Source: an uncultured Planctomycetota bacterium (GTDB lineage Bacteria; Planctomycetota; Planctomycetia; Isosphaerales; Isosphaeraceae). Taken from it: a DNA stretch of 64,000 nt. The stretch lies in NCBI GenBank assembly GCA_963845755.1, contig CAWJTV010000034.1, positions 96,001 through 160,000 of the forward strand, given 5' to 3'. The notes beneath the pieces were generated by a model. That model was not told the origin of the DNA and did not search any database. It was given only the letters and a program-made list of their open reading frames with translations. This document shows, piece by piece, positions 6,378 through 54,205 of this stretch. The position numbers and the translations under genes are program-made. Numbering within the stretch: the first letter of the stretch is position 1; every line of letters begins with the position of its first letter.

Positions 6378-8460
6378 TCACCGCTCGGTTGGCTTCGTAG
6401 GTAAGATGGGTTCGATGACCATCAGGTCATTCTGGTCATTGTAATGGTTTCCGGCTTCCGCGGCGATGCGTGTGACTCGCCCATCAACGCGGGAACGGAG
6501 CGTGAGTCTGGCCCGATGATCCTCACCCTCCTGTGGGATGTTCTTGATCTCCCCTTCGGTCATCCCGTAGCCCCGCAGTCTGTCTTGGGCGAGGCGAACG
6601 CCAAGTCCGGACCGCTCCTCAGCGATCTTGGTAGTAGCCAACCCATCTTCTGACACGAAGCCTTTCGCATTCATGTCGCGGCTCCACCGGAGTCGTCCTT
6701 TCGCACGCTCCGACTCGCTGAGGGCCGTCCTGTATTCCATCTTGGCCGACTCGAGGCGGGTGCTGAACAGCTCGAGTAGCGGATCGCCTCTCTTGACGGT
6801 CTGCCCAACCTTGACGTGGACCTTCTCCACCAGGCAATCAAACGGCGGGTGGACGATCGAGCGGGGATCGGACCGAATCGCATGGTAGGGATCGTAGAGC
6901 CGGTGGACCACGCCCTGGTGGAGCTTCTCGATATTGACCTGGACATGGCAGACGGCGCAGTCATTCGCCGTGGGTTGGGGCGCTTCATAGCTTGTTCGAT
7001 CTCCTGCGAATGGTTCACCGCATGACAAGCGATGCAGTTATTCACCATGGCTTGGGTGCGCTTAGCAGCGGATCGTGTTTCCTTCACCGAGTTCGCGGGC
7101 TGTTCCCGTGATACCTCCCCTCCAGGTTGTGGTGTGTCGGAGGGTTTCCAGGTCATTCCCCCCACCCACGATTCGTGAGCGGCCACGCATTGCCAGCGGC
7201 CCTGGCGCTTGACGTAGACGTGGGTTAGAGACTCCGGTACTGGAACGGTTTGAATCGTGATCCGGCTGGTGGCCACCACAGTCTCGTCGAAGACGCGGGT
7301 TTTGACTTCATGGAGTTGGCGCGGTTGGTTGGAGAAAGCACCGTTGCGAACGTGGGACAGGTAGGATTCCTTGAGGAAGACGATTCCCATTGGGTCAACA
7401 CCCTCGAAGTCTTCGGCGAGAATCCGGTTAATAATCGCAACATCGCGCCGAGGTATCGCGGCGGTCCAGGCGCGATCGAGCATCTCGACATCGATCGCTG
7501 CGTCGCTGGACGCGCCGGCTCGGCGGCCTTGGCGGCCACCGAGGTGTGGTCGACAATTCCTCGACCGCTGTTAAGCTTCTGCGCGGTGGCCTGGGCCACC
7601 AGGGCTGCGGAGCCGGTGAGGATCAAGAGCATCGCGACCGCCGCCAGCTTGAGCTTGGTCCAGTACATGGTCCGTAACACTCCTTGAGTCAAAGTGGCCA
7701 CCGAGGCCGAGACGATCCCAGCGGTCGTCAGCCGGCCCCCGGTCAGCGATTGAGCGGCCCGGGTCGTGGCTTCGACCAAACTCTGTGACAAGCCCATGGG
7801 GAGCGTGGGGATGGTGATCGCGAAATCGGAGGGGGCCAGGCCGCGCCGGGTCAACCGATCGCGCAGGCGTGCCCGTGCCCGTGATAGCCGGCTCTTGACG
7901 GTTCCGACCGGCCAGCCGAGCCGTCGCGCCGCTTCGAGGTCGCTCGATCCCTCCAGGTCGCAGAGGATCACGGGGGCCTGGAGGCGATCGGGAAGGCGGG
8001 CGATCTCCTGGGCCAGGATCGACTGGAGCTCGGCGCGGTCGAGGGGGGATAACGACCCTTCCTCGGCCACGATCTCGAGCTGATCGAAACCCAGACGCTC
8101 TCGACCGTGGCGACGATGAATATCGGCTCTGGACCGTGTTGCCACTCGGGTGGCCACGCCGAATAGCCAGCGACCGATCGAGCCGTCCACCCGGACCGAG
8201 GCCGCCTTGCGGACCAGGACCAGGAACGTTGCCTGGAACGCATCCTCGGCGTCGTGCGGATCGACCAGGATGCGCCGGCAGACCCCCAGCACCATCGGCC
8301 CATGCCGCTCTATCAATACCGAGAAGGCCAGTTCCGAGACTTCATCGTGACCGGTCAGGAAACGCTCCAGGAGCTGACTGTCGGAGAGCCCGCTGAAGGT
8401 GCCTACCCTCAGCAACGAGTTGATCTGACCCAGGATAACCCTGGAGTTGCGCCTCACCAT
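6378..8460 (-). CDS. ECF sigma-70 factor with C-terminal extension (TM, DUF4440/SnoaL-like, two CxxCH, HlyD-like barrel-sandwich); frameshifts near 7500 and 6970
   Basis: LSDSQLLERF, HGPMVLGVCRR, DAEDAFQATFLVL, LGWPVGTVKSRL; TM LAAVAMLLIL; DUF4440-like THVYVKRQGRWQCV; VEKVHVKVGQTVKRGDPLLEL. Confidence 0.7.
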
Positions 8461-8549
8461 CGGCCTTCCCCCTTCACTCATGCCACTCATCCTCTTCTAT
8501 GCCGTCAAGGGGGCGAGGCGTTCCCGATTTCCGGGGATCGACGGAAGTT

Positions 8550-19814: not shown

Positions 19815-20190
19815 GGAACAACCCTCGCCGCGGAAACGCCGACACTCGCTCATGCACGATCAGGAATACTCAGGCGCCCCTCGCTGCGTTGGTCAGATGG
19901 TTTCTTCGGCGCGTCAAAGGCCAGCGTCGGTCTGCGCGGCGCCGAGACTGATGCTATCATAACGAAGAGCGGCTGTCTTCGAGAAGGAACTGAGCGTGAC
20001 CAGGCATGAATACCCGGATGAGGTCTCGCCGTGAGCGCGGAACCGGGCGAGTGGTCACCAGGATTGCGAGGAGGCCATTTCCGGCAGGAGACTGGCACGC
20101 CGCAGATTCGGAGTCGGTCCCCTGCGGGAATTGGCTCGCAAGCCGCTAGCGTCTTCTCAACCAACATACCGTATCGAAGTGGTGAGCCGA

Positions 20191-20726
20191 ATGATGTCCG
20201 ACGATCTCCAGGCCATGTACCGCTACCTCGACACGTTGACGGCCGGGCCCAACCTGTCCCGTCTGCTCGAAGAATTGTCGCGATTCGAGATCAACCTTGA
20301 CGACCTGTCCGAATACATGCACTTCGCGGGGAACGGCTACAAGCGCAACCTCGTGCGCTCTCGCCGAATTACCAGGCCTGGATGCTCTGCTGGAAGAACG
20401 GCCAGCGTTCGCCAATCCACAACCATAGCGGGTCGGCGTGCGTGGTGCGCGTGCTGCGTGGCACGCTGACCGAGACGCTCTTCGAGATAGCGCCGAACGG
20501 CCATGTCAAGGCATCGTTTTCGCGCGATTTCGCCGAGGGTAGCCTGATCGGCAGCGAGGACACGGACATCCACCAAGTCTCGAACTTGCAGGCGGAGGAT
20601 GCCGACCTTGTGACACTACACGTTTACGCGCCGCCACTGACTCGGATGGAGACGTATTCGCTCTACGACGTTAGCCGCGGCTACGAGGTATGGGAACCGG
20701 AGTTCAGTGATGCCGCGGGAATCTGA
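20191..20726 (+). CDS. Cysteine dioxygenase family protein (frameshift near 20365)
   Basis: YKRNLV, LCWKNGQRSPIHNH, IHQVSN, TLHVYAPP. Confidence 0.85.
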
Positions 20727-20804: not shown

Positions 20805-21760
20805 TCAAAGTCCCCGAGGTGGTTCACATAACAGTCGTCGATGATCCTCGCGAGCGATGTTTTCGCCGGTGAGGATGACACAAATCGGCTCCTCTAGCTC
20901 TTCGGCGTGAGTCTGGACATAAGCCAGGGTGATCGCGCTCGACGGTTCGACGACGATCGCCTGAGTCTCGAAAAGCGCTTCAGCGCCGCGCGAATGTCTC
21001 CCTCCGGGACCAGGGAGACTGTCACGCCCGCTTCCGCGATCGCCTGCTGCACCTGGGAGTGGGGGATCTCCAGGATCAGACCGTCTGCGATAGTCGTCGA
21101 GCGTGCGTGGTCGAAACGGGCGTACTTCGGGTAATTGTACGGCTCGCAGCCGAACAGCCGGACCGGGGCCGGGTTGTTCCGCAGGTATGCCTGCAGGCCC
21201 ATGAGCAACCCGCCGCCACCGACCGGAAACACAAGCGACCGGCAATCGGGAAGGTCGTGCAGGATCTCGGCAGCGATGGACTGGTAGCCGTCGGTCCAGA
21301 GCGGGTCCAGGTGGGGATGTACGAAATAGCCCCCGCGTTCCTTGGCGAGGTCGGTGGCGCAGCGAAGGAGGTCGCTGCCCCCGCCGGCAATCTTGATCAA
21401 TTCCACGCCCAGGGCCCTCAGCTTCTCGTCCTTGGCCCGGGCGATGGTTTGCGGCACGACGCCGGTCATACTGAAGCCGAACGCCTGCGCGCGGTCGCCG
21501 CGCCCAGGGCGGTGTTCCCCATCGACGGCACGATCAATTGCCGCGTGCCCCCTTCCCGAATCAAGGTGCTCCAGCAGATGCACCGCCCCGCGAATCTTGA
21601 AACAGCCCGAAGGGGCAAGGAACTCGCACTTGGCGTGCACGTCCACTCCTGGGAAAGAGGTTGCCCAGGCGGATCATCGGCGTCGGCACAAGGGGAAGCA
21701 TGGCGGGTCTCTCGGCAGCAGTTGGCATGCAAGAACGCCCTGTTGTCGATGGTACTAAGT
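20805..21760 (-). CDS. PLP-dependent fold-II enzyme, threonine/serine dehydratase-like (several frameshifts; start approximate)
   Basis: KCEFLAPSGCFKIRGA, PVGGGGL, TIADGL, VEPSSA, ILTGEN spread over several frames. Confidence 0.75.
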
Positions 21761-21818
21761 CCGCCTGAAGTGCACCAGACTCGATGAGGGCGCACCTCCC
21801 GGCGCCCCGTGCATATCG

Positions 21819-22017
21819 TCAGTTGATCAGACTATCATGTCCCCGCGCTGGTCCCGTAGGGAGCTTGTTCAAGTCAACGTTGAAGAACGGGTCTACCTTC
21901 ATGCCGTCGGGGCCGATGTGGACCAACCGGAAGTAGAACCGCCCGGAGTGGTCGAGCGTCGAGAGCAGTGAGTTCATCACGTACATCCGCTTGCCGTCGC
22001 CGGTCACGTGCATCATG
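21819..22017 (-). repeat. Orphan copy of the SBP56 gene 3' end (island boundary)
   Basis: Encodes MMHVTGDGKRMYVMNSLLSTLD...PARGHDSLIN*; about 83% identical by hand alignment to 31687-31886. Confidence 0.9.
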
Positions 22018-22556
22018 CCGAAACGCCGCTTCTCGCAAGCGCCTGCCTGAGCAGCGTTTGCGACGCAAGTTCTTGCCATCCTTATTGTTTGCGACGAAAC
22101 TGGTGGTCACTCGTGATCGCTAGTCATCCCACTATGTCACAGGGAAAATCTTACCCTCGGAAGTTACCCCCGGCTCTATCTCTCTGGCGTGGCCGGATCG
22201 AACCGGCCGAACAGCTTCGAGCCGATTATGTCTCCTCCGCGCAGCGCTACGTCGACGGCGGACGGGTGGATCGCCCGTCGGCCGTCGGCGAGCCTGTGGG
22301 CTACCCTGTCGAGACACACTCTCCCACGACTCAGGATCGCGACCGCATCGCCCCCCGCCTGGTCGTGGAGGAGCCGGCCCAGGCTATCCTCCAGTTCTGA
22401 CGTTCCGGTTCGGTGGAGCAGGAGTTGAAGGGGAGTGAGAGGGTCAACCCCTTTTCTCGACAGCGACCGCCCTCCTCGCCGAAGAGCTGAGGTAATCGTT
22501 GCCACGCCAGGGATAGTAGAGTCTGATCGTTCGATCCTCGTCTAATGACTGATGTG

Positions 22557-23682
22557 TCACGGAGAGAGACCGCGGATCTCCGCTTCCTCCCAAGCGACGT
22601 ACTTCTCAGGATCCTTCCAGAACTTAACCCACGCGGAGTTCAGGAGCGAATGAACTTCGTCGGATGTGCCCGGCTCCGCCAGCCGACAGTTGACCGCGGA
22701 CGTGCCTTCCCGTGCGAGACGTACGATGCCGTCGATCAGATGGTCCGGGTAGCAGCGGTGATACTCCGGTTCCGGTTTTTGCGCCAGTTTCCGCGAGGAG
22801 CTCACACCACTTCACGGAGATCGCCGACGCTTCGACGCCGAAGCCGCCAAGTTTCAGGGCGCTCAGCATCGCCCTCATGCGGGCATCATCGGCGGGGTGA
22901 GAGGCCGCTCGGAACACCGGCACTTCGAATGGATCGTCGCCCCGCTTCGCTGTCAGGTGTAGATGAGACCAAGCGTATGCCGGCCCAAGGGTGTTCACGG
23001 CGAAGAGGTCGCAGAAGAACTCCTCGGTCCAGATCTTCACCCACGACTCGCGCCACTTCCTGAGCATGAACGCCGGTCGCTCGGGGCCGCGTCTTCGAGC
23101 TTCCTTCGCGACCTCCCCTGCGATGTAGGACAGCGCCTCCGACATCGCGTTGAAGACCGCCTCTTGATAAGGCTCGACGATCGGATCGTCTTCCTGCTGA
23201 GCGAGAGGATGGCCGAGCTCATGATAGAGGTCGGGGAGGTGGAGGAGGAATCTACCCTCCGTGAGCGGAACGAAGAGAAGGTTGAGCTCGGTGTTGACGC
23301 AGAAGTACTGCTGCGAGAGTGATGAGACGACGGGAGCGGCGAGCGGATACTGGATCTCTCGTCGGATCTTCTCGAGCAGTTGGGTGAGATGGTGATCGTC
23401 CCCCGCTGCACGACTCAGCGCGGCGATGCCGGTGCTTTCCAGGATGTCCAGGTCCGAGACGATCCGGCGGAAGGCCCTGAACCGCTCCGGCTGATTCGCG
23501 GGATCGAGGTAGTCCGCATCTTCAAGCAGAGAGCGGAGCTGATGCAGGTGGTCCTGGATCTTCCTGTGGCAGGTTTGAGAGAGCGCGTCGTAGTCCCTCG
23601 GCAGGCGCCGCGGGATCTTCGCGACGAGATGCCTCGCACGGGCGATGAGTTGGTGGGTTAACCCGGTCAGATAGTCGTTCAC
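22557..23682 (-). CDS. Zinc metallopeptidase-like protein, HExxH, ~375 aa (frameshift near 22775)
   Basis: LYHELGH (~23209-23223), EEFFCDLFA, SHP; C-terminus in ORF 22557-22805; GTGA overlap with the upstream gene. Confidence 0.75.
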
Positions 23683-24044
23683 ACCCCGCGTCCCCTCATC
23701 TTGCTGAGGAGATCCGACCTCTCATGTTCGATCGCGAGTGCGATGTTCTCGAGGCGCTCGACGAGCGTCGGCTCCACGTCCCGAGAAAGCAGAGCATCGC
23801 CGAGCGCGGACAACTCTCGGGGGTTACCCGCTTCGTCTGCGTGGACGAGGACGGCGAACACCTGCGATGCAAGGCTCTTAGCGTCGCCTCTTCCCGCCGC
23901 GATCAGAAGGTCGGCGAGCCGTTTTCTCCTGGGGTCAGAGGGCACACTCTTCCCGACCTTCAAACGCAAGATCACCTCGTCGAGAAGCTCGCCGTACTCA
24001 CGCACCCGGGAGTAGAGCCCGGAATACAGCCCGGAATGGCTCAT
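23679..24044 (-). CDS. 121-aa hypothetical, probably helical protein, Argonaute-associated
   Basis: ATGA overlap with the pAgo stop and GTGA overlap with the next gene. Confidence 0.8.
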   Translation of the reverse strand: MSHSGLYSGLYSRVREYGELLDEVILRLKVGKSVPSDPRRKRLADLLIAAGRGDAKSLASQVFAVLVHADEAGNPRELSALGDALLSRDVEPTLVERLENIALAIEHERSDLLSKMRGRGV

Positions 24045-26404
24045 GAGTGGACCTCCTCTGACTCTTCAAAATCGAGAGCGTCAGCGTCGTACTCGCTTGC
24101 GTCCTCGCCGAGCCGGCGATCGGTTAGCTTGAGGGTGATCGGATACCGAGTGCAGTCCTCCGGCCTCGTCCAGGCGAGAGCGGTGAGGTCATAGAGGTCC
24201 TCGAGGGGAGCTCTCGAAGTCCAGACTCCCCTCGACGTACCGGAGGTGGAGCGGCTGCACCGTCCCGTTCCGGCTGAACGCTCGCCCGGTGGCACAGAGG
24301 TATGCATCGTCTCCGCCGGCAAAGTGGTAGCACCCAACCTGAGGGTTGGTCACGAAATCGCGGTGGCCGTTCGAGGTGGAGACGTCGAAGAGCCTGAGAC
24401 TCGTGCGCGATGTCTTCCAGATCTCGAGCATCGTGATCGTGGCGTCCGGCTCGATCGTGCCGTCTTTCTCCAGCTCCGCGAACGCCCGCTTGAGCCCTTC
24501 GCGTTCGGATGACCAGAGGCGCCCATCTCGGTGGATGACGATGTGCCGAATCGGAGTGCCGGTTGCCGCCTCCTCCTTGATGATCTCCGCGAAGTACTTC
24601 TTCACCTGATCGGCGAGGAGACGTTCCTTCTGCCGAGACTCGTGGCACCGAGTCCGGACAAGGCTTCCGTTGCCGGCCACGACGGTGAAACCTGCGGTGT
24701 TCTGCTTGACGTCTATTCCGACCGTGACGTCGGCGTGGAGCGGCGTCGAGAGTACGAACGGCCACTTCTCGTTCGTGAGAAGGATCTTGTTCAGCGCGAC
24801 GTTCCGGAGGTAGCCGGAGAACTTGCCACGCTTGTCGTTCCGGACTCGGTTGAACGGCCTTCCGTCTCTGCCGTGCGCGAGCTCGTAGCATTCGCGGCCC
24901 ATCGCCGAGTGATTGACGGCGGCGTACACGTCGAGCTTCCTCAATTCTCTTACGACCATCGCGGCGAGTTGATCGTGCTGCCGATGCCGACGATCGCTCG
25001 TGTGATGGATCATGACGAGCGCGAAGCCGTCTTTTTTGCAGTGCTCCTCGGCAGCCGCACGAATTGCATTCCCTTGGTCGACGAATGTCTTCGGACCACG
25101 GTCGTTGTACGGCACCACGATCGGGTCGTACCCGCCGCCCTGCGGATAGAGTTCGTCTACGACCCGCTTGAGATCCGTAAGGAACTCACCGCCCCAGCTA
25201 TCCGCGACGCTCTGCGGGAGGAAGAGGTATTGCCTGTCCAGCCTGTCGCGCGAGTAGAAGCCCGCGCCCAAGTCGCGGAGGAGCTCGGCCCGGGTCCGTC
25301 CGATCATGTCGAGCGAGGCTTGCTGCGCCCGGGCGTTCCGCGGATCGAGACGATCCGATCGTTCCCGAACTCGTAGTCGGGGAGGACGAACATCTTGTGA
25401 GGGACGCTGACCGGGACCGGAGATACATCCAGCACGAACTCGCCGAATCTGAGCCGGCGGAGGAACTGTGCGGCGTAGCGATGGATCCCTTCGCGACGCT
25501 CGTGCGGCCTGAGGATCGTTCCGCCGTGATGCCGACCTGCTTCCTCGAACTTCGTGTCGATCACCGGATAGCAGAGCCCAGCCGGCGCACCCCTCAGTTC
25601 GCCCTGATTGCTCATGTAGGAGACGACGGATGCGTTGTTCGGGAGGTTTGCAAGCTCCTCGGGGACCGGCTTCTCGGTCTCGGCGAGAATGTAATCGAGG
25701 AGCGTAACGCGCGTACCGTTACGTTGGATGAGAATCTCGCTCGCGGTCAGGTCGTTGAATTCGTGGAGGTGGACGACGTACCACCGATGGCCGTAGCGGT
25801 AGACGCAACGGCTTCCGCGCCATCGCCTAAAAGCCGCCCGGTCCATGTGGAGCGGGAGCGGCTGGCGACTCGCAAGCCTGTGCTTGACGTTAACGCAGAG
25901 CCCGATTCCCCCGTCTGGCGTGACGATCGCTCGGACGGAAAAGCCCGGGTAGCGGACGACATTCCCGGAGAGGATCGTCGGGGTCTTCTCGAAAAACGGC
26001 TCTCCGGAGCCAGGCTGCCACAGAGTCGAGTTGGAGTTGAGCGGCGTCTGGACGGTGAAGTTCACAAACCGGAGGCAGATCTCGTCGTTCTCCGGATTCC
26101 GCTCGGTATAGTCGAGCGTCCTCACTCCGGGGACGCGATCGAAGTACACTGTCCGCCGCACGAGTTGATACGGACTCGGCGGCTCTGGTGCGTCGTCGCG
26201 CAGCACGAGGTACGGTTCGCCTTCGCGCTCGACAACCGTCGCTGGCGTGTGAGTCGCGTAGCTCATCCTCCGGGCGATGATCTGGCGGTTCTGGTGGTAC
26301 TCCGACTGCTCCGAGTGGAGGCCTCGAATTCGGTACAGGCGGTAGCTCGAGGAGAGCTGGGCGATGTTCGTGATCGGGAAGACGTTTGTCTCGAGCTTGC
26401 TCAT
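24041..26404 (-). CDS. ago: Long prokaryotic Argonaute, ~787 aa, with DEDD tetrad (frameshifts near 25320 and 24205)
   Basis: PIWI motifs WPFVL..VGIDVK, QKERL, IVIHRDG, GTVQPL, DLTALAW..YPITLKLTD; N/PAZ region in ORF 25304-26482. Confidence 0.92.
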
Positions 26405-27335
26405 ACATCGTCCTCCCAGCACATCACGCGATAGGAGCAGCGCTGGCACGCTTCTGGCGAGGCCGCGACCGGAAAATCGCATGGTCGGAGATCCGTGCTC
26501 TTTCGCCCGTCGAGGACAAGGAGCATGTCCGTCGCGGTCGCGGCGATGTGGGCGTCGATATCCGCGGCGTCATCCTCTGCGAGGGCGTAGGATCGCGTTC
26601 GTCCCAGCAGCAGTTGTACCTCGAGCAGGCGGACGTCCAAGGGTTGCCAGCGTGACATCGACTCCGGGAAGTCCTTGTGGGCGTTGCATCGACATAGCGC
26701 GAGCGCATATGTGGCGAGCTGAAGCCTCGCCTCCTGAACGCCGAACGCGTGCACCTTCCAGTCAACGATGAGAGGTGGTGCATTCTCGTAGAACGCGATG
26801 AGGTCGGGAACGGCTCGCACGGTCATCCCGGAGTGCTTGAACATCAGGGCGGCGTTGCGCGACCAGGTAGCTCGCTGCTTTCAGCTCCGCGGCGAGCTCT
26901 CTCATCTGAAAGAGGTTCTTCAGCGCGAGCTCGACCTCGGTCCAGGCGACGTTGATTTCCTCCTCATTGAGGGTCCCTTCGTAGGCCAACGAGTAGAAGG
27001 CGACGAAATCATCTCCCTCCTTGGTGGGGATGAGATCGAGATCGTCGAGGCGCTGCGTGCGGCCGTACGCGAGCTGCCCGTCAAAGAGCTCCCGCGCCCT
27101 CTTGACGGCCAACTGGAGCGTCACGGTCCTGCGCTCGCAACTGCGGGACGATGAATGAGCTGATGACGTCGTTAACGATGTTTCCACGCCACGAACTTAG
27201 GCTCTGGAGCTTGCCGAGCAGATATGCCCGCCGGCGCTCGCGGTCGTTCGCCCTGTGACTCGCGAGGACGTTCTTGAAGTACCACTGACGCTGGCATCTC
27301 CTAAACGTCTTGCTCTCCGAGATCGACCAATACAT
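26401..27335 (-). CDS. PD-(D/E)XK nuclease, Cas4/AddB/RecB-like with 4 Cys, ~310 aa (frameshifts near 27130 and 26850)
   Basis: WSIS..F..CQRQWY, VPDLI, IVDWK, QLATY, CQRCSYRVMC. Confidence 0.88.
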
Positions 27336-27694
27336 CAGCGCTTCCTCCCCGCATGCTTCGAGCGGAGGAAGGCGAGATAGTCCGCGAGGGCATCCTCCTC
27401 CTCTTTGGTCGTGGGGCCGAGGCGGGCCGAGAGCCGCGAAGCTGATTCACGTCGCTTGGTCGGCCCGGGTACAGGATATCCCGCGTACTCGAACAGGGTC
27501 TCGTACGGGACCTCATAGAGCTCGCTCAGCTTGTGGAGGTGCGCCGGGGAGGGCTCGCGGATCTTCCCGGTTTCAAGCTGGCTGAGATACGCGTTTGAGA
27601 TCCCGGTCTCAGCCTCGACGGCGCGTAGGGACAGGCCCTTCGAGCGGCGTAGCACGGCGAGGAATGAGCCAAGGCGATTGGGTTCGGTTGACAT
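27335..27694 (-). CDS. XRE-family HTH transcriptional regulator, 119 aa
   Basis: LRRSKGLSLRAVEAETGISNAYLSQLETGK..PS; TGATG overlap with the nuclease gene. Confidence 0.92.
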   Translation of the reverse strand: MSTEPNRLGSFLAVLRRSKGLSLRAVEAETGISNAYLSQLETGKIREPSPAHLHKLSELYEVPYETLFEYAGYPVPGPTKRRESASRLSARLGPTTKEEEDALADYLAFLRSKHAGRKR

Positions 27695-27740
27695 GATGCT
27701 AAGTTTGCCAAGCACGCTCCGGATGTCAAGCACTCGCTCC
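27695..27740 (-). promoter_or_regulatory. Sigma70-like promoter, probably leaderless, with overlapping direct repeats
   Basis: TTGACA (27729-27724), 16 nt, CAAACT (27707-27702), 7 nt, then ATG; no SD; repeats GGAGCG(AG)TGCTTG. Confidence 0.55.
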
Positions 27741-27877
27741 GCGGATGGTTCCTCGCCTGCGGAGATTTCTCGCGGTTCGCGTGGACGACGAACGTCACAC
27801 GCGGCCTGGTATGCGAGGCGCACAAACTCCCTGTCGCCGAAGCGGCAGCTCTCGGGGTGCTTGCATTGCTCCGCCGA

Positions 27878-28096
27878 TTATGACTCGTGCTTGGCAACCG
27901 GCTTGCCCGCCCGCCCGTTCACGGGCCGCTGCGGCTTCTTCCGGTAGAGTCGGGAGGACTCGAAGTAGCCGTACCGATCCGTGTACGGATCGTCCTCGGC
28001 GACGTAGAGTCCCTCGATGACGCTCTTCATCCGGAGCGGCTTGTCGGCAGGAAGGAGGACGCCGGCGATCTTCTTCTTCGGCGTTTCAGAGGCCAT
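27878..28096 (-). CDS. 72-aa basic hypothetical protein
   Basis: AAGGAG RBS 8 nt before ATG; starts 14 nt after the patatin gene stop. Confidence 0.6.
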   Translation of the reverse strand: MASETPKKKIAGVLLPADKPLRMKSVIEGLYVAEDDPYTDRYGYFESSRLYRKKPQRPVNGRAGKPVAKHES

Positions 28097-28461
28097 CGGC
28101 GTATCTCCTTTCAGTTGAAGAGCTTGCGGATCACGTTTTCCCAGACGAGCAATCGCTCGAGCACCTCAGAACGAAGGTTCGCGCCGGCGAGGTCGGAAGG
28201 CGATCCGGGCTCCTCTAACCAGTTAGTATCGGCAAGAGGCGTCACGGAGTCAATGGACAAAGTCCCAATCGGCTCGCTCCCGGGTTGCTTTTCCGCCTCA
28301 GGATGATCCCAGATTGGCACGCTGAGCATCGACTTGCGGTGATCTGGGACGCGGCGGTGCTGCTCCGCGGTCATCCTCCATGGCGTTGGGTTGACCGCAG
28401 CGGCGCTCGAGGTCGTGCAAGCAGGCCGCCTTGCGCTCCACGCCCGTCCGCTGCATCCGGC

Positions 28462-30042
28462 CAGTGAGTTCAGGGTTTTCCTCTGGCTCTAGGGGGCCCC
28501 GTCTTTTGCTCATGTGCTTGCTGGAGAACCCGGTAGGTTGACGTATGGTTGCCGAGCACACGCTTCTTGACTTTCTGATGACCGCCACGGCCGGAGCTGG
28601 GCGCTTTCCACCAACGGTCGCTCCAGGCGCGCGCAACCGCTCCCGCAAGTACGTGCGCACCTCACTCGCCGTCGGCACGGCGCCCAGCAACGACAGCAAC
28701 GTCTTGACCTCAACCAACTCGCTGACCGACACCATTTGCCGCTCCACGTCACCGAAGAGCTTCTCGTTGGAGATCGCCTTGGCCTCACACTCTTGATGCG
28801 ATGCCAGGTGCGTCCGCACGACTTGCAGGGCGTTGTACAGCAGCAGGCAGAACGACAACTGGAACAGGACCGCCTTCGGCTGCGTGCCGATGAGGTGCTT
28901 CAGCGAGAACACGTCGGTGATCTGCTGGAAGACCGTCTCCAGACCCCAGCGACTCTGATACGTCGAGAGCATCGCCACGGCGGGATACGTCGTCTCGTCC
29001 AACAGGTCGGTGATCACGCCGAACTCCTTGCCGTCGGCCAGATGCTTGGTGATCCGGCGCACGTACACGCGGTCGGCCTTGGCGACCTTGCCCAGCCAGC
29101 CCCACTCCTGCACGATCCGGCGCCCGTCGGCGTCGCGGGTCTCCTGCGCCGGCCGGGACGCATCGGGAACGAACGTCGTATTGCTGCAGTAGCGGATCAG
29201 GAAATGGCCGCCGGCCTTCAACACCTCCCGGGGAAAACTCAGGTTGCAGTAGAGTCGGTCCAGGACCACCAACCACAACTTCTCCGGCCGGCCAGCGCCG
29301 CCAACTTCGGCAGCAGGCCCTCGGTGAGAGCCGCTTCACCGGCTTCGCCGTCGAGGTGGCCCACCATCGCGACGGCCAGGCCCGTCCGCAGGTCCAAGCC
29401 CACCGACGCCCGCGCACCGAGGATCCCCGCCTGCAAGCCGCGCAACGGCTTGAGGAGCCGGCGAACGTGCTTGATCGCCTTGCCGTCGGCCCCGAAGACT
29501 TCGAACCCGGCCCAACACGCCGGCAACGGCTCCACGGCCAGGGTCTCAGGCAGGACCGCGTTGAGCCGCTGGGTGCCTTCGGCGAGCAGGGCCTCGCTGA
29601 GGGGCAGGGGCAGGTTCCCCAACTTGTCATAGGACGAGGTGATCGAGACCGGCAGCGTGCCCTGTTCCTGGGCCCGCGTGAAGGCCTGGTAGCCACTCCC
29701 CTCGTGCTCGATCAAGGCATCGGTGATCAGATGGGCCAGCGTGCGGAACTTCAACTGCTTCTCGAAGCAGGGCCCGCGATTTCGCGCCCAGAGATCATCC
29801 AGCCACGAATCCGCCATCGCGTAGTGCAGCAACCGCCACACCGAGTCGGCCAGAGGAAGCCGACTCAGCACCTCGGCGGCAAACGGGGTGTCGTTGAGGA
29901 CCGAAGGACTCCGGACGGCTGCGGAAAAGACGGCGACCTCCATAACCGAAGGACTCCTGAGAGGACCGAAGGTGCAATCCGATGGGTATTTATGATACGG
30001 ACCTCGGATCCGCGGTGGAACGCCAAGACCCTGAACTCACTG
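28462..30042 (-). mobile_element. IS4-family insertion sequence, 1581 bp
   Basis: 15-bp IRs CAGTGAGTTCAGGGT (28462-28476 / 30028-30042); 12-bp TSD GCTGCATCCGGC (28450-28461, 30043-30054). Confidence 0.93.
28480..29943 (-). CDS. IS4-family DDE transposase (frameshifts near 29285 and 28625; end approximate)
   Basis: GADGK, VLDRLY, YQSRWGLETVF (YREK-like). Confidence 0.88.
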
Positions 30043-31625
30043 GCTGCATCCGGCGGTCTCGGCGATCTCGAGCGTGTGGTCGGAATCCATCTCATTCGTC
30101 GCCGGGTCGAACATTCCGAACGAGTAGGTGACTATCCTCGTCGGCGTACCGTCGTCGAAGGTCCGACCGGTCCGTAGCATGATGTGTGTCCGGACGTCCT
30201 CTGCGTCGGTGCTTGATTCGATATCCTGTGCCACGGCGAATAAGACGGCTTCGAAGAGCTTGGGGTCACCGTAGCGTGCTTGCAATTGACGCTGGATGAC
30301 CCCCTCCCGGATCTCGGTCTGGCCGAGGCCGTGCACTCCGAGTTGGTGGACGAAGTCCTCGGCCTGGTTATGGCGTTGAAGGATCTCGAGGTTGTCGAGG
30401 AACTCGCTCGACTGGTGGTAGCCGAGATTGAAGAGCTTGCGCCGACCATCGAGGCCGATCTTGAAGTCGAGGACGTCGAACTTGTTCGGGATGCGAATGG
30501 GGACGTGGATCACGTCCTTCAGGACCTTGCGGAGGAGCTCATCCCCAGCGTCGAGCGCGGTTGACACCATGTCCTTGAGAAACCGCTTGAGGTCGTAGTT
30601 GGTCGCGGCTTCGGGGGAGGCCTCTGAAGTCAGGTCGAACGCGAATACCGGGTGTCTTGTCCGCTGCTGCTCGTCGTGAAAGAGGAATGCGGGGAGGTTG
30701 CTCGCCAAGCCTCCGTCAACGAGCCAGCACTGGCGGTTCCGGTCTACCGGCTGAAACACGAACGGGTAGCAGGTGGACGCACGAACGGCGTCCAGCACCG
30801 AGCTGCCGTAGAGCGTCTCGTCCTTCGAGAACACGACCGGTTGACGACGAGAGACATCCGACGCGACGATCTTCAGGGGGAAGCAGCGGCGACCATTGCT
30901 CCGGACAGCCTCGAAGGCAGCTAGGCTCGCGAAACTGATGTCGCTCGCTTCATCGAGTGACGGGAGCTTGGCAGCGATCTTCTTCAGGAGGAAGACCTTG
31001 AGCACCTGACCATCATCAACTCCGAACCGTTCCATGAGCGTCTGCTTCAGAGTCCCGTAGCCGAGGTACGCGCCGAGTGCCCGCGCGACCGAGCCCAGCT
31101 TGCCGAATAGGCCCTTCTCTAGGCCCCCAACGACGGCGCCAATCTGGGACTTGAACGCTTCGACGTGTTTGCCGTTGTCGTTGAGGAGGCTCGTGAACTC
31201 TGTACCTACGAGGATGTCCTCGATCTCTTGTCCGCTGTAGCCCACCGCGGCGAGCGTCGCGATGACGCTCCCCGCAGACGTGCCGCCGAAGCCCACGAAC
31301 TCGACTCGCTTCCGCTCTGCAGCCTTGAGGGCTCCGGCGAGCGCCGCTCCGAGGACACCACCACCGTCGAAAATCGCATAGGCTTTCATCAGTTCGGTAT
31401 TCCTGCTCTTTCGCTTCGTGGCGCCCTTCGAGGTTGACAGTTCAGTACCCATCGGTCGCGAAGACGTGCTCGACGTACAGGTCGTGTTGACGCTCCAGCA
31501 GGCGGAGACAAATGGACATCTCCTCGATCCAGACGAGTTGACGAGCAGCCGGTCGTACCGTTCGGGGAGCGACGACACCGTGTAGCATGATCGGCAATGC
31601 GGAGACTCCCTCGTGCAGACGCTCC

Positions 31626-31662
31626 GGAAAAGGTTCCGAAAGAGGTAGTGGAGACCTTTTCC
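31626..31662. terminator. Hairpin just downstream of the SBP56 stop
   Basis: GGAAAAGGT-TCC...GGA-G-ACCTTTTCC; no clear U-tract. Confidence 0.3.
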
Positions 31663-31686
31663 TCGCGGGGGGCATGATGTGATTTG

Positions 31687-32923
31687 TCAATTGATGAGCA
31701 TGTCGTGTCCCCGAGCCGGCCCCGTCGGGAAATGGTTCAGGTCAATATTGAAGAACGGGTCGACCTTCATCCCATCGGGGCCGATGTGGACCAGTCGCAC
31801 ATAGAATCGTCCCGAGTGGTCGAGCGTCGAGAGCAGCGAGTTTGACACGTACATCCGCTTGCCATCGGCGGTCGACGTGCATCATGTTGGGCTGGACGCA
31901 AGGGGCGACGGTGCTGAAGAGGCGAGGATGCTCGGGGTCGGAGACGTCCCACTGCTGGATCGAGTTGTCGCCGAAGCAGCTCACGTAGAGGTACTTGTCG
32001 TCGGGACTCTGGCGCAGGTCGGCGGGGATCGCGCCGGTGTCGGCGACCTTCTTGAACTCGTAAGGACCCGAATCGGTCCCCTTGAATAGCCAGATCGAGT
32101 TGTCGAAGGCGCAGTTGGTGAAGCCGTAATTGTTCTCCGGCTTGAGGCTCCAGCGTACCTCCAGTGGCGCCAGGCCCGTCTTGCCAACCTGAAGCGGTTG
32201 GCGGTTCTTGAAGTCCCAGACGACCAGCTCGCTGCCGAAATCTTTCAAGTCCATGTTCGCCAGCGGCTTCTTGTAGTTGCGCAACGGCGTGAAGCTACTC
32301 GTTACCATGCGGTTCAGCGACGGCTTGATGGCCACGTCGTAGCCATAAGGCGCCTTCTCGGGTTGCTCGATCCGGCGGATGAACTTGCCGTCGTTGGTGA
32401 ACTCAGCCAGGCCCGTCGGCAGGCCGCCGCTGGATGAGCCGAGGAAGCTGATCAGCATCCGGCCCGGTAGCGCGTAATAGCTGTGAGGGCCGGATAACCC
32501 GGATAACTCGGGGACGTTCTCCAGCACCTTTTCCACCTTAGGCCTGGCCGGGTCGGTCGCAACATCCAGGATCCAGATCCGGCTCGAGAACAGACCGCCC
32601 GCCCAGATCTTCGTCCGGTCGTCGGTGTAGCCCCAGTGGTGCGTCTCGTTCCCCTTGGTGCCCAGGTCCACGCTATGCAGGATCGTGCCGAAGGTCGCGC
32701 TATCCGGATTCACGTCGATGACCGTCATGAAATCATTGTCTTTCGCATCCGCGTTAACGCAGAAGACATAAAGGTATTTCTCGGGGCGATCCAGCCGTTT
32801 GACGAACGGCGACAGGCAAGTCTCCGCCGGTGACCGAGTGGGCGGGATCAGCGCGGCCGATGCTATCGCGAACAGGGCCAGGCCCAGAAGCCGACCTCGG
32901 TGATTCCTCGACCGCTGTGCCAT
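31687..32923 (-). CDS. Selenium-binding protein SBP56 / methanethiol oxidase family, secreted (frameshift near 31873)
   Basis: DFMTVIDVNPDS.TFG, GNETHHWG, GPHS, GDGKRMYVSNSLLSTLD. Confidence 0.85.
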
Positions 32924-32973
32924 CGTTCGTCCTCCTCGTTGCGAGCGTCCCAAATGCAATGAATCCCATCGTG

Positions 32974-33426
32974 TCAGGAACTGACCTGGCTGATCTCGCG
33001 TTCGCTCGATTCCGCGGGCGTCGGGGCGGGGGCCCGACCTGGCCATCGGGGCGGCGCCAGGATGAACGTGCCCAGGACGACCAGCCCGAACAGGATGTAG
33101 ATCACGGTGAAGCCCCACGGCGGGGCATCGTAGAATATCAGTTGATGCGCCCAGTGACCGATGAAATCGCCCGAATAGCCGGCCTGTCCGGCCGCGGTCC
33201 GGAGCTGGTCCTCCCACGAAGTGAGCGGGCACTTCATCCCGACGAACTCCTCGGCGACGACGATCCCGATCATGGTCAGATGGATCGAACGGAACCAGAA
33301 GTTGCGAATCCAATCCCACCGGAACCCGATCCCGATCAAGATCGCTCCCAGGCCCAGGACGATAAAGCTTGCGTAAGCCGCGTGTATTGCAACGATCAGG
33401 TCCGCGAGCAGTTTGGCCCAGGGCAT
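32974..33426 (-). CDS. DUF2784 family membrane protein
   Basis: LADLIVAIH, CPLTSWE, DFIGHW. Confidence 0.85.
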   Translation of the reverse strand: MPWAKLLADLIVAIHAAYASFIVLGLGAILIGIGFRWDWIRNFWFRSIHLTMIGIVVAEEFVGMKCPLTSWEDQLRTAAGQAGYSGDFIGHWAHQLIFYDAPPWGFTVIYILFGLVVLGTFILAPPRWPGRAPAPTPAESSEREISQVSS

Positions 33427-33485
33427 GGCTGGCCTCCTTCGACATAGAGCCCTTCCGCCCAGTGTGCGATGATCCGCCTCAACGT

Positions 33486-43674: not shown

Positions 43675-46566
43675 ATGGGATACCGCATCGTCATCGCCGC
43701 GGCAATCGCCGTCGCCCAGGCTCCGGCACCGGCACCGAAGGCTCAGGAGAAAGCCCCGGCGGCCGCGGCGTCGGACCAGGCACTCAAGGACGCGCAGCGG
43801 TTGTTGCAGAACGGCCGCTATGCGGAGGCGGAGGAGGCCCTGTCGGCGATCCTGACCGAAGCCAAGAAGGAGCCCGCGCGGCTCACGCCCGCGCGGAAAG
43901 GCGCGGTCGTGCTGGGACTGGTCGAATGCGCGGCCAGCCAGGGCGAGCATGGCAAGGCGATCGAACGGCTCAAGGCGGCCGAGGCTGAGGAGCCGAAGAA
44001 CGCCGGCCTGCCGGCGCGACTGGCCGAATTGTACCTGACTCGCGGCGACTGGGAAGCCGCCGAGGCCGCCATGCGCCGTGCCGAGGCGATCGACCCCGAT
44101 CACTTGCTGGCGCGCTGGGTCGAGGCTCGGCTATATGATCTCCGCGGCGATCTCGACAAGGCGGTCATCGCCTGCAAGTGGTTCGTCAACCGGTACAACG
44201 ACCGGCGTGCGGAGATCATCAAGGACGCCGAGGCCCTGCTCCTGGTCGGCCAGGCTTGCGAACGGTACTATCGCGCCAACGCACGGGGAGAGGAACTCAG
44301 CGATGCGCTCAACGATGTGATCAACGAGATCTATGAGACCGCACTGCGGGTCGACCCCAATTGCTGGCGAGCCCCCTGGTTGGAGGGACGGCTGTTCCTC
44401 TCCGGTTACAACGAACGGGCCGCGGCGCGTGAGCTATCCCGGGCCCAGCAGATCAACCCGCATTCGCCCGAGGTGCTCGTCACGCTCGGCCAGTCCGACT
44501 TGCAGTCCTATCGCCTGGCGTCGGGCCGGGCCAAGGCGGAGCGGGCCCTGGCCACGAATCCCCACTTCGCGCCGGCCCATATCCTCCTGGCCGACCTGAA
44601 CATCTCCGACGAGCGGTTCGTCAACGCCCATGCTGCGGCGCGAAAGGCGGTAGCGGAGAACCCGCGCGACGAGGAGGCACTTGGCCGGCTGGCCGCGTCG
44701 TGCCGGCTGCTCGTCGACCCGGTGGGGGCGGCCGCCGCGGAGCTGGCCGCCCTGGGCAACAATCCTCGTCCGGCCACCTTCTATGCGTCCCTGGGCGAAC
44801 GGCTGGCCGACCGCCGCAAGTATCCCTCCGCCGAACGCGCCTTCCTGCTCTCGGCCGCGGCCGACTCCACGCGAGCCGAGGCTCCCATCGGACTGGGAAT
44901 GCTCTACATGCAGGTCGGTCGCGAGACCGAGGCCAAGAGCCTCTTTGACGCCGCCTTCGCCGCCGACCCCTTCAACGTCCGGGCGAACAATATGATCGAG
45001 GTCCTCAAGCACATGGCCCCTTATACCAACGTCGTCTCTAAGCACTACAGCGTGCTGATCGACCCGACGCAGGATGAGCTGCTGGGCCGGTACATGTCGC
45101 GGTACCTCGAATCGATCTACGCAACCCTGACCTCGCGATTCGGCTACATCCCGCCGGGGAAGACCAAGATCGAGATCCTCAAGGACCACAAGTGGTTCAG
45201 CGCCCGGACGATCGGCCTCCCGTTCGTCCCAACGGTCGGGGCCTGCACCGGGCGGCGTCGTGGCCCTGGCCAGCCCCCGGGCCACCCGCGTCCCCTTCAA
45301 CTGGGCCCGCGTACTCACCCACGAGGTCACCCACGTCATCACCTTGCAACAGACCGAGTTCAACATCCCGCACTGGTATACCGAGGCCCTGGCCGTCGAG
45401 AGCGAGGGATTCCCCCGCCCCCAGGAATGGAACAAGATGCTCCTGGTTCGCGTACCGGACCGCAAGCTCCTGAACCTCGACACCATTAACCTGGGATTCA
45501 TCCGGCCCAAGGAGCCGGAGGATCGCCAGTTGGCCTATTGCCAGGCCCAGCTCTATGCCCGGTACATGCTCAAGCGATTCGGCGATGACGCGTTGATCAA
45601 GATGCTCATGGCCTACCGCAGGGGCGCACGACCGACAGCGCGATCGCCGAATGCTTCCACGTCGAGAAGGCCGACTTCGAGAAGGGCTACCTGACCTACC
45701 TGGACGAGGTGATCAAGACGATCCGCACCCGAGTCGATGAGGAGAAGACGATCGAGTTCTCGCGGCTCGAGCGCCAATACAAGGAGAAACCCGAGGACGC
45801 CGACTTGAACGCGCGGATGGCCTACGAGCACTTCGCCCGCCGCAATTTCTCCGAGGCGCGGCCGTTCGCCGACAAGGCGCTCGAGCTGAAGCCGCACCAT
45901 CCGCTCGCCAGCTACGTCAAGGCGCGGCTCCTTCAGTCGATCGGCGACAACGATGCAGCGCTCGCGGTGCTCGAGCCCGCGCACGATCCGAAGAATCCCA
46001 ATGAGCGGGTGATCGACCTCCTGGGACGGCTGAAGATGGAGGCCGGGCAGCTTGATGAAGCGGAGAAGCTCTACGAGCTGGCGCGGAAGGACGACCCGTT
46101 CCATAGCAAGTGGATCGCGGGCATGGCGCAGGTCCACCTCCGCCAGAAGAGGACGGACGCTCTGCTCAACGACCTGGCCATGCTCGCCGCCAACGACGCC
46201 GACGACCTCCGGGTGCGCAAGGCGCTGGCCGAACGCCACCTGGCCCTGGGGCACGCCGCCATCGCCGAGAAATGGGCCAACGAGTGCCTGTACATCAACG
46301 TCTACGACCCGACCGTGCATGTCTTGCTCGCCGACGCCCAGGTCGCCGGAAAGAAGTTCGCCGAGGCTATTGAGGAGTACGAGGCCGCCCTGGAGCTGAA
46401 GATCAAGAAACCCAACGATCTGAAGGTCAAGCTGGCCCAGGCACAACTGGGCAAGGGCGACCGCACCGCCGCCAAGGCCACCCTCGACGGCATCCTCAAG
46501 GAAGATCCCGAGCACCCCGAGGCAAAGGCACTCCGGGAACAGATCGAGCGCGTGAAGAAAGGATAA
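43675..46566 (+). CDS. Large TPR protein with central peptidase MA-like domain (frameshifts near 45255 and 45625)
   Basis: TPR-like repeats; LTHEVTHV..PHWYTEALA. Confidence 0.8.
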
Positions 46567-51019: not shown

Positions 51020-51139
51020 GAGTCTGTCCCAGAAGGGCGAGCGGGGGGCGTCAGCCCCCTGTCCGGTGAACGGCGGACCTCCAAGACAGGGGGCTGACGC
51101 CCCCCGCTCGCCCGGACCGGCCCCTTCTGGGACAGACTT
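51020..51139. repeat. ~120-bp palindromic MITE-like element, copy 2
   Basis: Terminal IR AGTCTGTCCCAGAAGGG / CCCTTCTGGGACAGACT with an internal long hairpin; TAA on both sides. Confidence 0.85.
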
Positions 51140-53950: not shown

Positions 53951-54145
53951 CGTTGTGGGTGCTCCCAGGCGGTTGTCGGGGTACCGGCAACTTGCCGGCT
54001 TCTGCGCGCGACGCAAGCGAGACGCCTGCAACAGGATTCCTTGTTGCGCAGTATAACCGCACAGGTCGCATGGGTCCAAGGAAGGAACCCGGACCGGCCG
54101 CGAAACCTGGCCTTGGTCACGATTCGAGAACGACTTCCGGCCTTT

Positions 54146-54205
54146 GTAGGGTGGGTGAAACCCACCATGATCGGGCCGTTCTTGGTGGGGTTTCACCCAC
54201 CCTAC
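54146..54205. repeat. REP doublet (family A) overlapping the stop codon of the sigma-WD40 gene
   Basis: Same arms as 11437-11496 plus shared flank TCCGGCCTTT. Confidence 0.85.

Follow-up and report, generated by a model that had tools for sequence, protein, structure and literature searches.

A PliAgo-type Argonaute cassette from an uncultured Planctomycetota bacterium carries a conserved and probably latent predicted zinc protease with its small partner

Why should a long prokaryotic Argonaute (pAgo) be followed by genes for a small protein and a putative metallopeptidase? The question is raised by a 64,000-nt stretch of DNA from an uncultured Planctomycetota bacterium (GenBank assembly GCA_963845755.1, contig CAWJTV010000034.1, positions 96,001 to 160,000; hereafter, the window), where five genes run on the minus strand from 27694 to 22557. 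They encode, in order, an XRE-family helix-turn-helix (HTH) regulator, a Cas4-like PD-(D/E)XK nuclease, a long pAgo, a 121-aa protein and a protein with an HExxH motif. The answer that we consider probable, with moderate confidence, is that this is a conserved PliAgo-type 'D-R' (DNA-guided, RNA-cleaving) cassette in an acquired island, that its frames were broken by indels in the assembly, and that its last two genes form a latent, plugged protease serving as a second output.

The regulator gene (27335–27694, with its ATG at 27694–27692) is intact and encodes 119 aa with matches to Pfam HTH_3 and to the PADLOC profiles HTH_VI and capH. The nuclease gene (26401–27335; PADLOC PDLC02406, Pfam PDDEXK_1) and the gene for the pAgo, of the PliAgo group (24041–26404; PADLOC PDLC02382), are each read in three frames. 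The gene for the 121-aa helical protein (23679–24044), recognized from its family alignment and its co-fold with the HExxH protein, is intact, and that for the zincin-like HExxH...E protein of ~375 aa (22557–23682, final stop at 22557), recognized with a family profile and AlphaFold models, is read in two frames. At the first junction the regulator stop and the nuclease start have one nucleotide in common (TGATG, 27337–27333), and the following overlaps are ATGA at 26404–26401 (nuclease and pAgo), ATGA at 24044–24041 (pAgo and 121-aa gene) and GTGA at 23682–23679 (121-aa and HExxH genes). All four read on the minus strand exactly where the preliminary description, made from the letters alone, had placed them. 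A Schlesneria metagenome-assembled genome (locus L002) has the identical gene order with overlapping or abutting junctions, and the annotation of a Runella plasmid shows it with three 4-nt overlaps and one 2-nt gap. Because order and tight junctions recur in these two loci, and the gene set in every related locus examined, the five-gene arrangement is not due to chance, and the single unit proposed earlier is a conserved, tightly packed cassette. A scan of 22200–28200 gave no promoter-like signals and four terminator-like ones against 3.9 expected, and was uninformative on co-transcription.

The linkage of the two downstream genes to the pAgo was strong in each collection. Six of six genome loci found with the pAgo, in records of Verrucomicrobiota, Planctomycetota, Latescibacterota and Cyanobacteriota, had the XRE gene, the nuclease, the pAgo, a 118–122-aa gene and a 374–381-aa HExxH gene, in this order. 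Metagenome loci were taken as the best 80 of 407 found with the HExxH protein, near-duplicates included, and genes were counted in those loci that had enough upstream DNA; a pAgo lay upstream of the HExxH gene in 71/71 loci with at least 500 nt of it (full length in 38/39), and the small gene was present in 71/71 (69 by tblastn, L055 and L065 by reading of their open reading frames (ORFs)), the nuclease in 37/39 and the XRE gene in 30/33. Searches of 72,556 plasmid records with the pAgo and with the HExxH protein returned the same five records, the two genes being adjacent in 5/5. Conservation beside homologous pAgos, on which the preliminary description had made its proposal depend, was thus found in the genome (6/6), metagenome (71/71) and plasmid (5/5) loci alike. 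The HExxH protein has 936 homologues, all annotated as 'hypothetical' and without Pfam domains.

The plasmids also revealed how the cassette varies. On Runella slithyformis pRUNSL03, where the cassette runs from WP_041344179.1 to WP_013921747.1, the pAgo (WP_013921749.1) is the RslAgo protein characterised in PMC9360449, with an HTH regulator and a nuclease upstream and a 125-aa and a 378-aa 'hypothetical protein' downstream. Emticicia and Spirosoma plasmids encode a sigma-70 factor, a 180-aa protein, the nuclease, the pAgo, and proteins of 128 or 132 aa and of 382 or 387 aa, with only 23–24% (pAgo) and 25–27% (HExxH protein) identity to their L002 counterparts. An Aphanizomenonaceae plasmid cassette has no regulator listed. 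When sequences of the XRE-type, sigma-70-type and regulator-less cassettes were aligned, the distant ones being ~25% identical, the HExxH motif was kept in 5/5 and the E..CD block (E221, C224 and D225) in 5/5. Loss or damage of upstream genes was also seen: in L030 (1627–3375) a 489-aa ORF borne by an insertion sequence (IS) replaces all but the last 72 pAgo codons, with the small and HExxH genes intact; in L084 (3171–3335) the XRE gene is reduced to its C-terminal 54 codons; and L022 and L023 are without it. Because the protease pair is kept with an XRE regulator, with sigma-70 and the 180-aa protein, or with no regulator, it is part of the core machinery rather than an appendage of the XRE protein. 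The conserved unit is the nuclease, the pAgo, the small protein and the HExxH protein, and the regulator is exchangeable.

Loci of the sigma-70 type were reached through plasmids, as a sample of 400 other genomes of the phylum gave no match to PDLC02383, the PnyAgo-type profile. Their 180-aa gene (L105 2459–3001; L107 2472–3017) overlaps the stop of the sigma gene, and its product gave a faint XRE-like HTH signal (Pfam HTH_19, E 0.076). A relationship to the XRE protein was considered and set aside, since hhalign against the XRE profile (E 0.023 and 0.3) was too weak to call. The 180-aa protein could be an anti-sigma factor or a diverged repressor.

We then asked which kind of Argonaute the cassette encodes. 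The three pAgo pieces match PDLC02382 (pAgo_II) at profile positions 2–356, 366–729 and 729–779 of 782 (E values of 3.5e-121, 1.5e-138 and 2.3e-19), and the intact L002 homologue, which is 68% identical, matches the PliAgo structures 7r8f–7r8k over their full length (E about 1e-163). Residues were mapped by eye, numbering the printed alignment of L002 with 7r8f against the residues given in PMC9360449. The DEDD tetrad of PliAgo (D563, E592, D626 and D762) is kept in the window pieces as GIDVK, QKERLL, HRDG and LKLTD, as are the group-specific lysines K565 (in GIDVK) and K759 (in LKLTD) and the equivalents of H498 and Y530 of the MID pocket (in VNHSAM and SGYLRN). The other two positions of the RHSY pocket, R467 and S501, are His and Met in both the window and L002. 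According to the text of PMC9360449, the His and Tyr (second and fourth) of this pocket are absolutely conserved, the other two are not invariant, and the group is without the (Y/H/R)KQK motif. By these residues the window pAgo is a member of the PliAgo/RslAgo group of DNA-guided RNA cutters, and the catalytic integrity claimed for it in the preliminary description holds at the level of the tetrad. Lisitskaya et al. 2022 (PMC9360449) describe the D-R pAgos as two groups, in HTH-regulator operons and in sigma-70 operons, and report that the PliAgo group uses 5'-phosphorylated DNA guides in vitro to cut complementary RNA, not DNA. Membership of this clade is what suggests that the window pAgo may do the same. 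Its acidic C-terminal tail after LKLTD (24041–24130) is 83% identical to that of L002, compared with 60–68% for the other pieces; the tail of PliAgo is described as disordered and without a role in guide binding (PMC9360449). The tail could be a docking site for a partner.

The two upstream genes agree with this placement. The XRE protein matches Pfam HTH_3 (E 2.9e-12), PADLOC HTH_VI (2.9e-10) and PADLOC capH (5.4e-7), and an alignment of 25 homologues (mean column identity 55%) shows an N-terminal HTH, an invariant AGYP motif, a variable linker, a conserved C-terminal helix and a basic tail. The nuclease pieces match PDLC02406 (Aga_Cas4-like_Nuc) over profile positions 1–71, 68–161 and 164–307 of 308 (E values of 8.4e-30, 7.2e-21 and 3.4e-54), as well as Pfam PDDEXK_1, and L002 holds an unbroken homologue of 310 aa. 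With the PD...DxK motif (VPDL...VDWK) and four Cys (C...CxxCx5C, in FRRCQ and CQRCSYRVMC), it is by motifs and homology the Cas4-like nuclease that had been read from the sequence before, an Fe-S PD-(D/E)XK enzyme. Together, the XRE protein, nuclease and pAgo fit the PADLOC 'Class II' models and the published operon, in which an HTH regulator and a PD-(D/E)XK nuclease distantly related to Cas4 precede the pAgo with the 'same gene composition' (PMC9360449). The PADLOC check that had been recommended therefore recovers the pAgo and the nuclease as modelled components, but leaves the 121-aa and HExxH genes without a match.

The HExxH protein was therefore characterized through its own family. The two pieces of its gene cover profile positions 2–304 and 298–374, in two frames, and in 49/49 sequences H154, E155, H158, E221, C224, D225 and H262 (L002 numbering) are invariant. 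The AlphaFold models are confident (pLDDT of 94.8 for the full protein and 94.1 for residues 96–374) and show an N-terminal bundle of three helices, a small sheet, an HExxH helix (151–162) and a long helix (202–232) bearing E221, the putative third zinc ligand. Because generic helical bundles aligned to residues 1–92 dominated the VIA rows of the full model, the catalytic domain was modelled alone and aligned exhaustively by VIA to 48,161 chains. The top 17 rows are all zinc peptidases or peptidase-like, headed by M48 and M13 peptidases (Z 6.4–7.9): BepA (Z 7.9; root-mean-square deviation 3.9, 138 residues aligned), Zmp1 (7.8), PepO (7.5), neprilysin (7.4) and ZMPSTE24 (7.3). Minigluzincins (Z 4.8–5.4, with their zymogens at 5.2–5.4), BlaR1 (5.1) and PprI (4.5) are found lower down. 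The nearest named ESM Atlas clusters were U49 and M48 (0.78–0.79) and its structural rows had TM scores of 0.39 or less, which serve as leads only. Membership of the Lit family (Peptidase_U49) was rejected, as hhalign against E. coli Lit aligned seven residues, those of the HExxH motif, at a probability of 0.4%, and there was no Pfam hit. The invariant HExxH...E signature and the gluzincin-like model support the peptidase proposed earlier, and we predict that the protein is a cytosolic zinc peptidase of the gluzincin type.

A model of the small protein with the HExxH protein suggests how the pair may work. An alignment of 36 small-protein sequences shows a conserved N-terminus (MSxxGLYSGLY), a conserved C-terminus (LExLAxxLExER...KMRG) and a variable middle. 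Co-folding, with alignments built in this analysis, gave ipSAE scores of 0.78, 0.80 and 0.78, as against 0.00 for the best of three controls; the mark used was reached by 116/157 solved pairs and 2/215 mismatched pairs. At least 90% of contacts are common to the runs, and the partner reaches a pLDDT of at least 76. In the model, helices of the small protein pack on helix 57–83 of the N-terminal bundle, whereas its residues 2–13 follow the edge strand 126–132 of the peptidase and touch E155, H158, E221 and H262. Metalloprotease inhibitors that insert their N-terminus, such as TIMP and the serralysin inhibitors, sit likewise. The co-folding suggested in the preliminary description thus placed the N-terminus of the small protein in the active-site cleft, and the small protein is predicted to be a partner or plug of the HExxH protein.

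Given these observations, we propose the following sequence of events. The XRE protein would autoregulate the operon, and the nuclease would supply guide DNA from invader DNA, a role that the PliAgo authors proposed for it (PMC9360449); the pAgo would load DNA guides and cut invader transcripts. The small protein would meanwhile plug the peptidase, packing on its N-terminal bundle with its own N-terminus in the active-site cleft, until infection or target engagement by the pAgo removes or consumes the plug and the freed protease cuts a host factor or a regulator. That guide-dependent sensing is linked to proteolysis, as suggested in the preliminary description, we infer only from gene linkage.

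Several observations weigh against this proposal. Nothing physically ties the protease pair to the pAgo, which by its residues is catalytically competent and does not obviously need an extra effector, and the near-duplicates among the metagenome loci mean that those counts overstate independence. The match to the zincin fold is middling, with all Z scores below 8. Foldseek searches of the PDB with the full and domain models gave no match at E 0.001 or better, the HExxH-family profile returned coiled-coil noise only (E 0.04 or worse) from PDB sequences, and Pfam and PADLOC gave nothing meaningful for the window pieces or for four intact homologues of each downstream protein. Finally, the co-fold expresses model confidence, and a tail so placed in the cleft would be equally compatible with a substrate bound in advance.

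Of the other explanations, the one that survives best, though we regard it as doubtful, is that the HExxH peptidase is an analogue of CapP, ImmA and IrrE. It would, on a signal such as nuclease-made ssDNA, switch the cassette on by cleaving the XRE repressor or, in sister operons, the 180-aa protein that accompanies the sigma factor, and the small protein would hold the peptidase off. Repressors, and sigma factors with a partner, are commonly released by proteolysis. An XRE HTH protein and a zinc peptidase in one operon are also the pattern of CapH with CapP, ImmR with ImmA and DdrO with IrrE (10.64898/2026.05.16.725639), the XRE protein does match capH at 5.4e-7, PprI/IrrE is among the structural rows (Z 4.5), and the AGYP motif, variable linker and conserved C-terminal helix make a plausible layout for cleavage and dimerisation. 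However, the peptidase is without the HTH and GAF domains of CapP: its model holds an N-terminal helical bundle and a helical catalytic domain with no GAF, and PADLOC gave no match at 0.01. Pfam Peptidase_M78 was likewise absent: the four intact homologues matched no Pfam family even at E up to 10, nor did the window pieces at 0.01. In addition, the M48 and M13 peptidases score above PprI. The gene neighbourhoods argue in the same direction, since the pair is kept where the XRE gene is missing (L022 and L023), truncated (L084), unlisted (the Aphanizomenonaceae plasmid) or replaced by sigma-70, and the operon begins with the XRE gene and ends with the peptidase gene, whereas the CapH and CapP genes are neighbours.

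It is less likely again that the small protein sits in the cleft as a substrate bound in advance, comparable to CalpT on CalpL and to Csx30 of Craspase, and that its cleavage would free a fragment acting on the regulator or on the cell. CalpL, CalpT and CalpS provide one precedent for such a protease cascade, and Craspase with Csx30 another (PMC11106740, PMC9729208). The conserved N-terminal peptide does run in a substrate-like manner along edge strand 126–132, beside E155, H158 and E221, and if the middle were the part that binds an exchangeable partner, XRE or sigma, one would expect it to vary between two conserved termini. Co-folding, though, cannot separate a substrate from an inhibitor, binding of the small protein to XRE or sigma is without support, and with the bound segment beginning at residue 2, hardly any chain would remain N-terminal of the scissile bond. 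The plug is the role that we prefer for the small protein.

The broken frames call for an account of their own, because this copy of the cassette could be a genuine pseudogene, decaying in a degraded island, and no artefact of assembly. The preliminary description was correct in mentioning frameshifts: five were placed, in three genes, and the XRE and 121-aa genes are unbroken. Two lie in the nuclease gene (~27130–27140, in a GC repeat, and ~26851), two in the pAgo gene (~25327, in a G run, and ~24207, where the coding strand has four consecutive C) and the fifth in the HExxH gene (an A5 run at ~22776–22780, placed by alignment to the family consensus). Every one is a change in the length of a homopolymer or short repeat. 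The frames were checked against contigs from two public sequencing runs that contain relatives, other strains at 90–99% identity; these contigs are without coverage of window positions 22500–22861 and 27568–27900. Compared with the window, the relatives lack one base at 24207 (run X1) and, in both runs, one at 26851; both runs also have an additional base after 25327, which lengthens the G run, and two additional bases at 27130–27140. The repair with reads that had been recommended was thus achieved in part: four sites differ by indels in the relatives' contigs, but the HExxH site is uncovered.

The rest of the genome (14.27 Mb in 49 contigs, completeness 87.9%) is affected in the same way. 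All five essential genes tested are split, rpoB once, rpoC twice, dnaE once, gyrA twice and secA once, about seven events in ~16.5 kb (~0.4 per kb) on contigs C34, C33, C11 and C25. Among 59 other window ORFs, split Pfam domains include CDO_I, PALP, an ECF sigma factor with DUF4440, TPR with Peptidase_MA_2, and DUF7133-HEAT with cytochrome c (split genes at 20131–20726, 20805–21646, 6671–8490, 43675–45694 and 51139–54196). Because these essential genes are split too, and the four covered indels differ in the relatives, the five operon breaks are most likely assembly errors, and any 'pseudogene' call in this genome needs read support. Two findings speak against this part of our reading: the HExxH frameshift falls outside the read coverage, and the operon, with five frameshifts in 5.1 kb (~1 per kb), is ~2.3-fold above the essential genes (Poisson P about 0.05–0.07), an excess that leaves some room for real decay. 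Broken neighbours (the IS4 transposase, CDO_I and PALP) and degraded cassettes elsewhere (L030, with its pAgo cut by an IS, and L084, with its truncated XRE gene) would also fit decay. Nevertheless, decay appears improbable to us, as all the indels are length errors of homopolymers or short repeats, breaks of the same type in rpoB, rpoC, dnaE, gyrA and secA would be impossible in a living cell, and the cassette shows no premature stops, deletions or substitutions of catalytic residues. Its coding sequence is still 58–68% identical to the L002 proteins over their full length, and 87.9% completeness in 49 contigs is consistent with indel-ridden long-read data.

That the HExxH protein is no protease at all, being another metal-dependent hydrolase or a structural adaptor on a zincin scaffold, is very improbable: zincin-like folds do occur in non-protease roles, the protein belongs to no peptidase family at the sequence level and its structural Z scores are middling, but HExxH, the distal Glu and the further His, Cys and Asp are invariant across homologues of ~25% identity, zinc peptidases and peptidase-like proteins fill the first 17 VIA rows, and the co-fold models a peptide in the cleft.

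The surroundings of the cassette are those of an island. A 188-nt direct repeat has its distal copy at 21818–22005 (strand not assigned), 82% identical to 31686–31873 at a spacing of 9868, and the latter copy is the 3' end of an SBP56-like gene (31742–33445), with Pfam SBP56 matches on both pieces. One gene split by the island was considered for the SBP56 pieces and rejected, as the repeat analysis showed a complete gene plus a duplicated 3' end. The two copies bracket 9.7 kb (22006–31685) that hold the cassette, an IS4-like element and a patatin gene. In a genome of the same genus the same duplication is present with only ~1.5 kb between the copies (L102) and no gene of the HExxH family; this family was found in 0/20 genomes of relatives, and a pAgo_II match was absent from 400 other sampled genomes of the phylum. 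The cassette is horizontally moved cargo.

Within the island, the IS4-like element (28448–30056, minus strand) has its transposase in two frames (Pfam DDE_Tnp_1, 2.9e-9) and is bounded by 32-nt inverted repeats (28448–28479 and 30025–30056, 84% complementary), the right one overlapping the 3' end of the patatin gene. That gene (30037–31578, minus strand) encodes a patatin-like phospholipase (Pfam Patatin, 3.9e-25) with weak matches to the PADLOC 'Effector phospholipase', and may act in defence as an effector of its own. The XRE gene is separated from the IS by two minus-strand ORFs, of 72 aa (27878–28096) and 87 aa (28111–28374); the latter has a coding-like GC content at third codon positions and no Pfam hit. 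Elsewhere, three cassettes adjoin ubiquitin-like conjugation genes, on the Runella plasmid (L106 8229–10370), on the Spirosoma plasmid (L107 1–1478) and in L002 (2779–4416). On the two plasmids these are a multiubiquitin-domain protein and a ThiF-family adenylyltransferase, and in L002 a 545-aa ORF that by eye resembles a JAB and E1-like fusion. This neighbourhood probably reflects the clustering of defence islands.

Among known systems, the closest are the PliAgo/RslAgo operons (PMC9360449; 7R8F–7R8K), which share with the window the pAgo clade, the DEDD tetrad, K565 and K759, the His and Tyr of the RHSY pocket, and the nuclease and HTH regulator upstream. The plasmid locus of RslAgo itself has all five genes in identical order, so that its gene content does not differ from that of the window; the window copy differs in being frameshifted in the assembly. 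The preliminary description presented the locus as a candidate new defence system, which it is not: the XRE–nuclease–pAgo operon is published (PMC9360449), PADLOC models the pAgo and the nuclease, and RslAgo sits in the same five-gene cassette. Its statement that no characterised system adds a small protein and a metallopeptidase fares better in one respect. The text of PMC9360449 names only the nuclease and the regulator as operon partners, and in the literature on these pAgo operons, with PMC13346755, PMC11162769 and PMC6299218 among the texts covered, we found no text naming or studying the protease or the small partner, the figures and supplement of PMC9360449 being outside the scope of that search (Fig. 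1b and Supplementary Fig. 1 may draw both genes unlabelled). On the other hand, the characterised RslAgo does lie in such a cassette.

The sigma-70 operons of the PnyAgo/MbpAgo group have the same core of nuclease, pAgo, small protein and HExxH protein, as seen on the Emticicia and Spirosoma plasmids, whose loci are assigned to this group by the sigma factor and low identity only. They differ in that sigma-70 and the 180-aa protein replace the XRE regulator and in a MID pocket of the standard type (PMC9360449). Long-B pAgo systems, BPAN and the like, resemble the window in encoding a pAgo together with a PD-(D/E)XK nuclease. Long-B pAgos are, however, catalytically dead, and the nuclease is their effector. 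By group, the window pAgo would be an active RNA cutter of the long-A type, and it has two further core genes; the frame of long pAgos with nucleases, in which the preliminary description had set it and which stands for inactive long-B types, is the wrong comparison. The account of long-B systems also draws on Ryazansky 2018.

On the protease side, CapH with CapP, ImmR with ImmA and DdrO with IrrE likewise combine an XRE-type repressor and a zinc HExxH peptidase in one immune operon. According to 10.64898/2026.05.16.725639, CapP is kept latent by a cysteine-switch loop that occludes the active site, and CapP and IrrE have C-terminal HTH and GAF domains. In contrast, the window peptidase has neither these domains nor an M78 signal, a separate protein is the predicted source of its occlusion, its gene does not adjoin that of the repressor, and the pair persists without XRE. 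Lit (Peptidase_U49, of prophage e14) is also a cytosolic HExxH zinc protease in phage defence, and the Atlas clusters U49 and M48 (0.78–0.79) are a lead in that direction only; its alignment to the HExxH family, confined to seven residues, indicates no membership.

A further likeness is to protease cascades of CRISPR type III systems. The type III CalpL–CalpT–CalpS cascade has the same theme of nuclease, protease, partner and regulator. In Craspase (type III-E gRAMP with TPR-CHAT, Csx30 and RpoE), too, a guide-dependent RNA-targeting nuclease is combined with a protease, a small partner and a transcription regulator (PMC11106740, PMC9729208), and in the sister operons of the window cassette the regulator is a sigma factor, as it is there. 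They differ in the protease, caspase-like or Lon versus a zinc gluzincin, and in the guide, which here would be DNA; control of the protease by the pAgo is here a conjecture from the genes alone. By analogy, D-R operons may be the Argonaute counterpart of Craspase and CalpL, with DNA-guided recognition of invader RNA, or ssDNA made by the nuclease, stripping or consuming the plug so that the dedicated zinc protease cuts either a host factor or the regulator of its own operon, which would be the XRE repressor or, in the sister operons, the partner of sigma-70; we put this forward tentatively. If true, nucleic-acid sensing would be converted into a proteolytic, transcriptional or growth-arrest signal, and the nuclease, pAgo, plug and protease would be a conserved four-part machine with the regulator as its exchangeable read-out.

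The window locus is thus a new member of a published operon type whose protease pair is unstudied and probably latent; in architecture this copy offers nothing new, and its frames were most likely broken by errors of assembly. PliAgo-type pAgos are under development as programmable RNA cutters, and published work names no more than two of the partners in their operons. The linkage of a predicted zinc protease and its partner to these pAgos is as tight as that of the nuclease and holds with both regulator variants, on plasmids and at the RslAgo locus itself, which raises the question of whether an Argonaute controls a protease, as CRISPR type III systems do.

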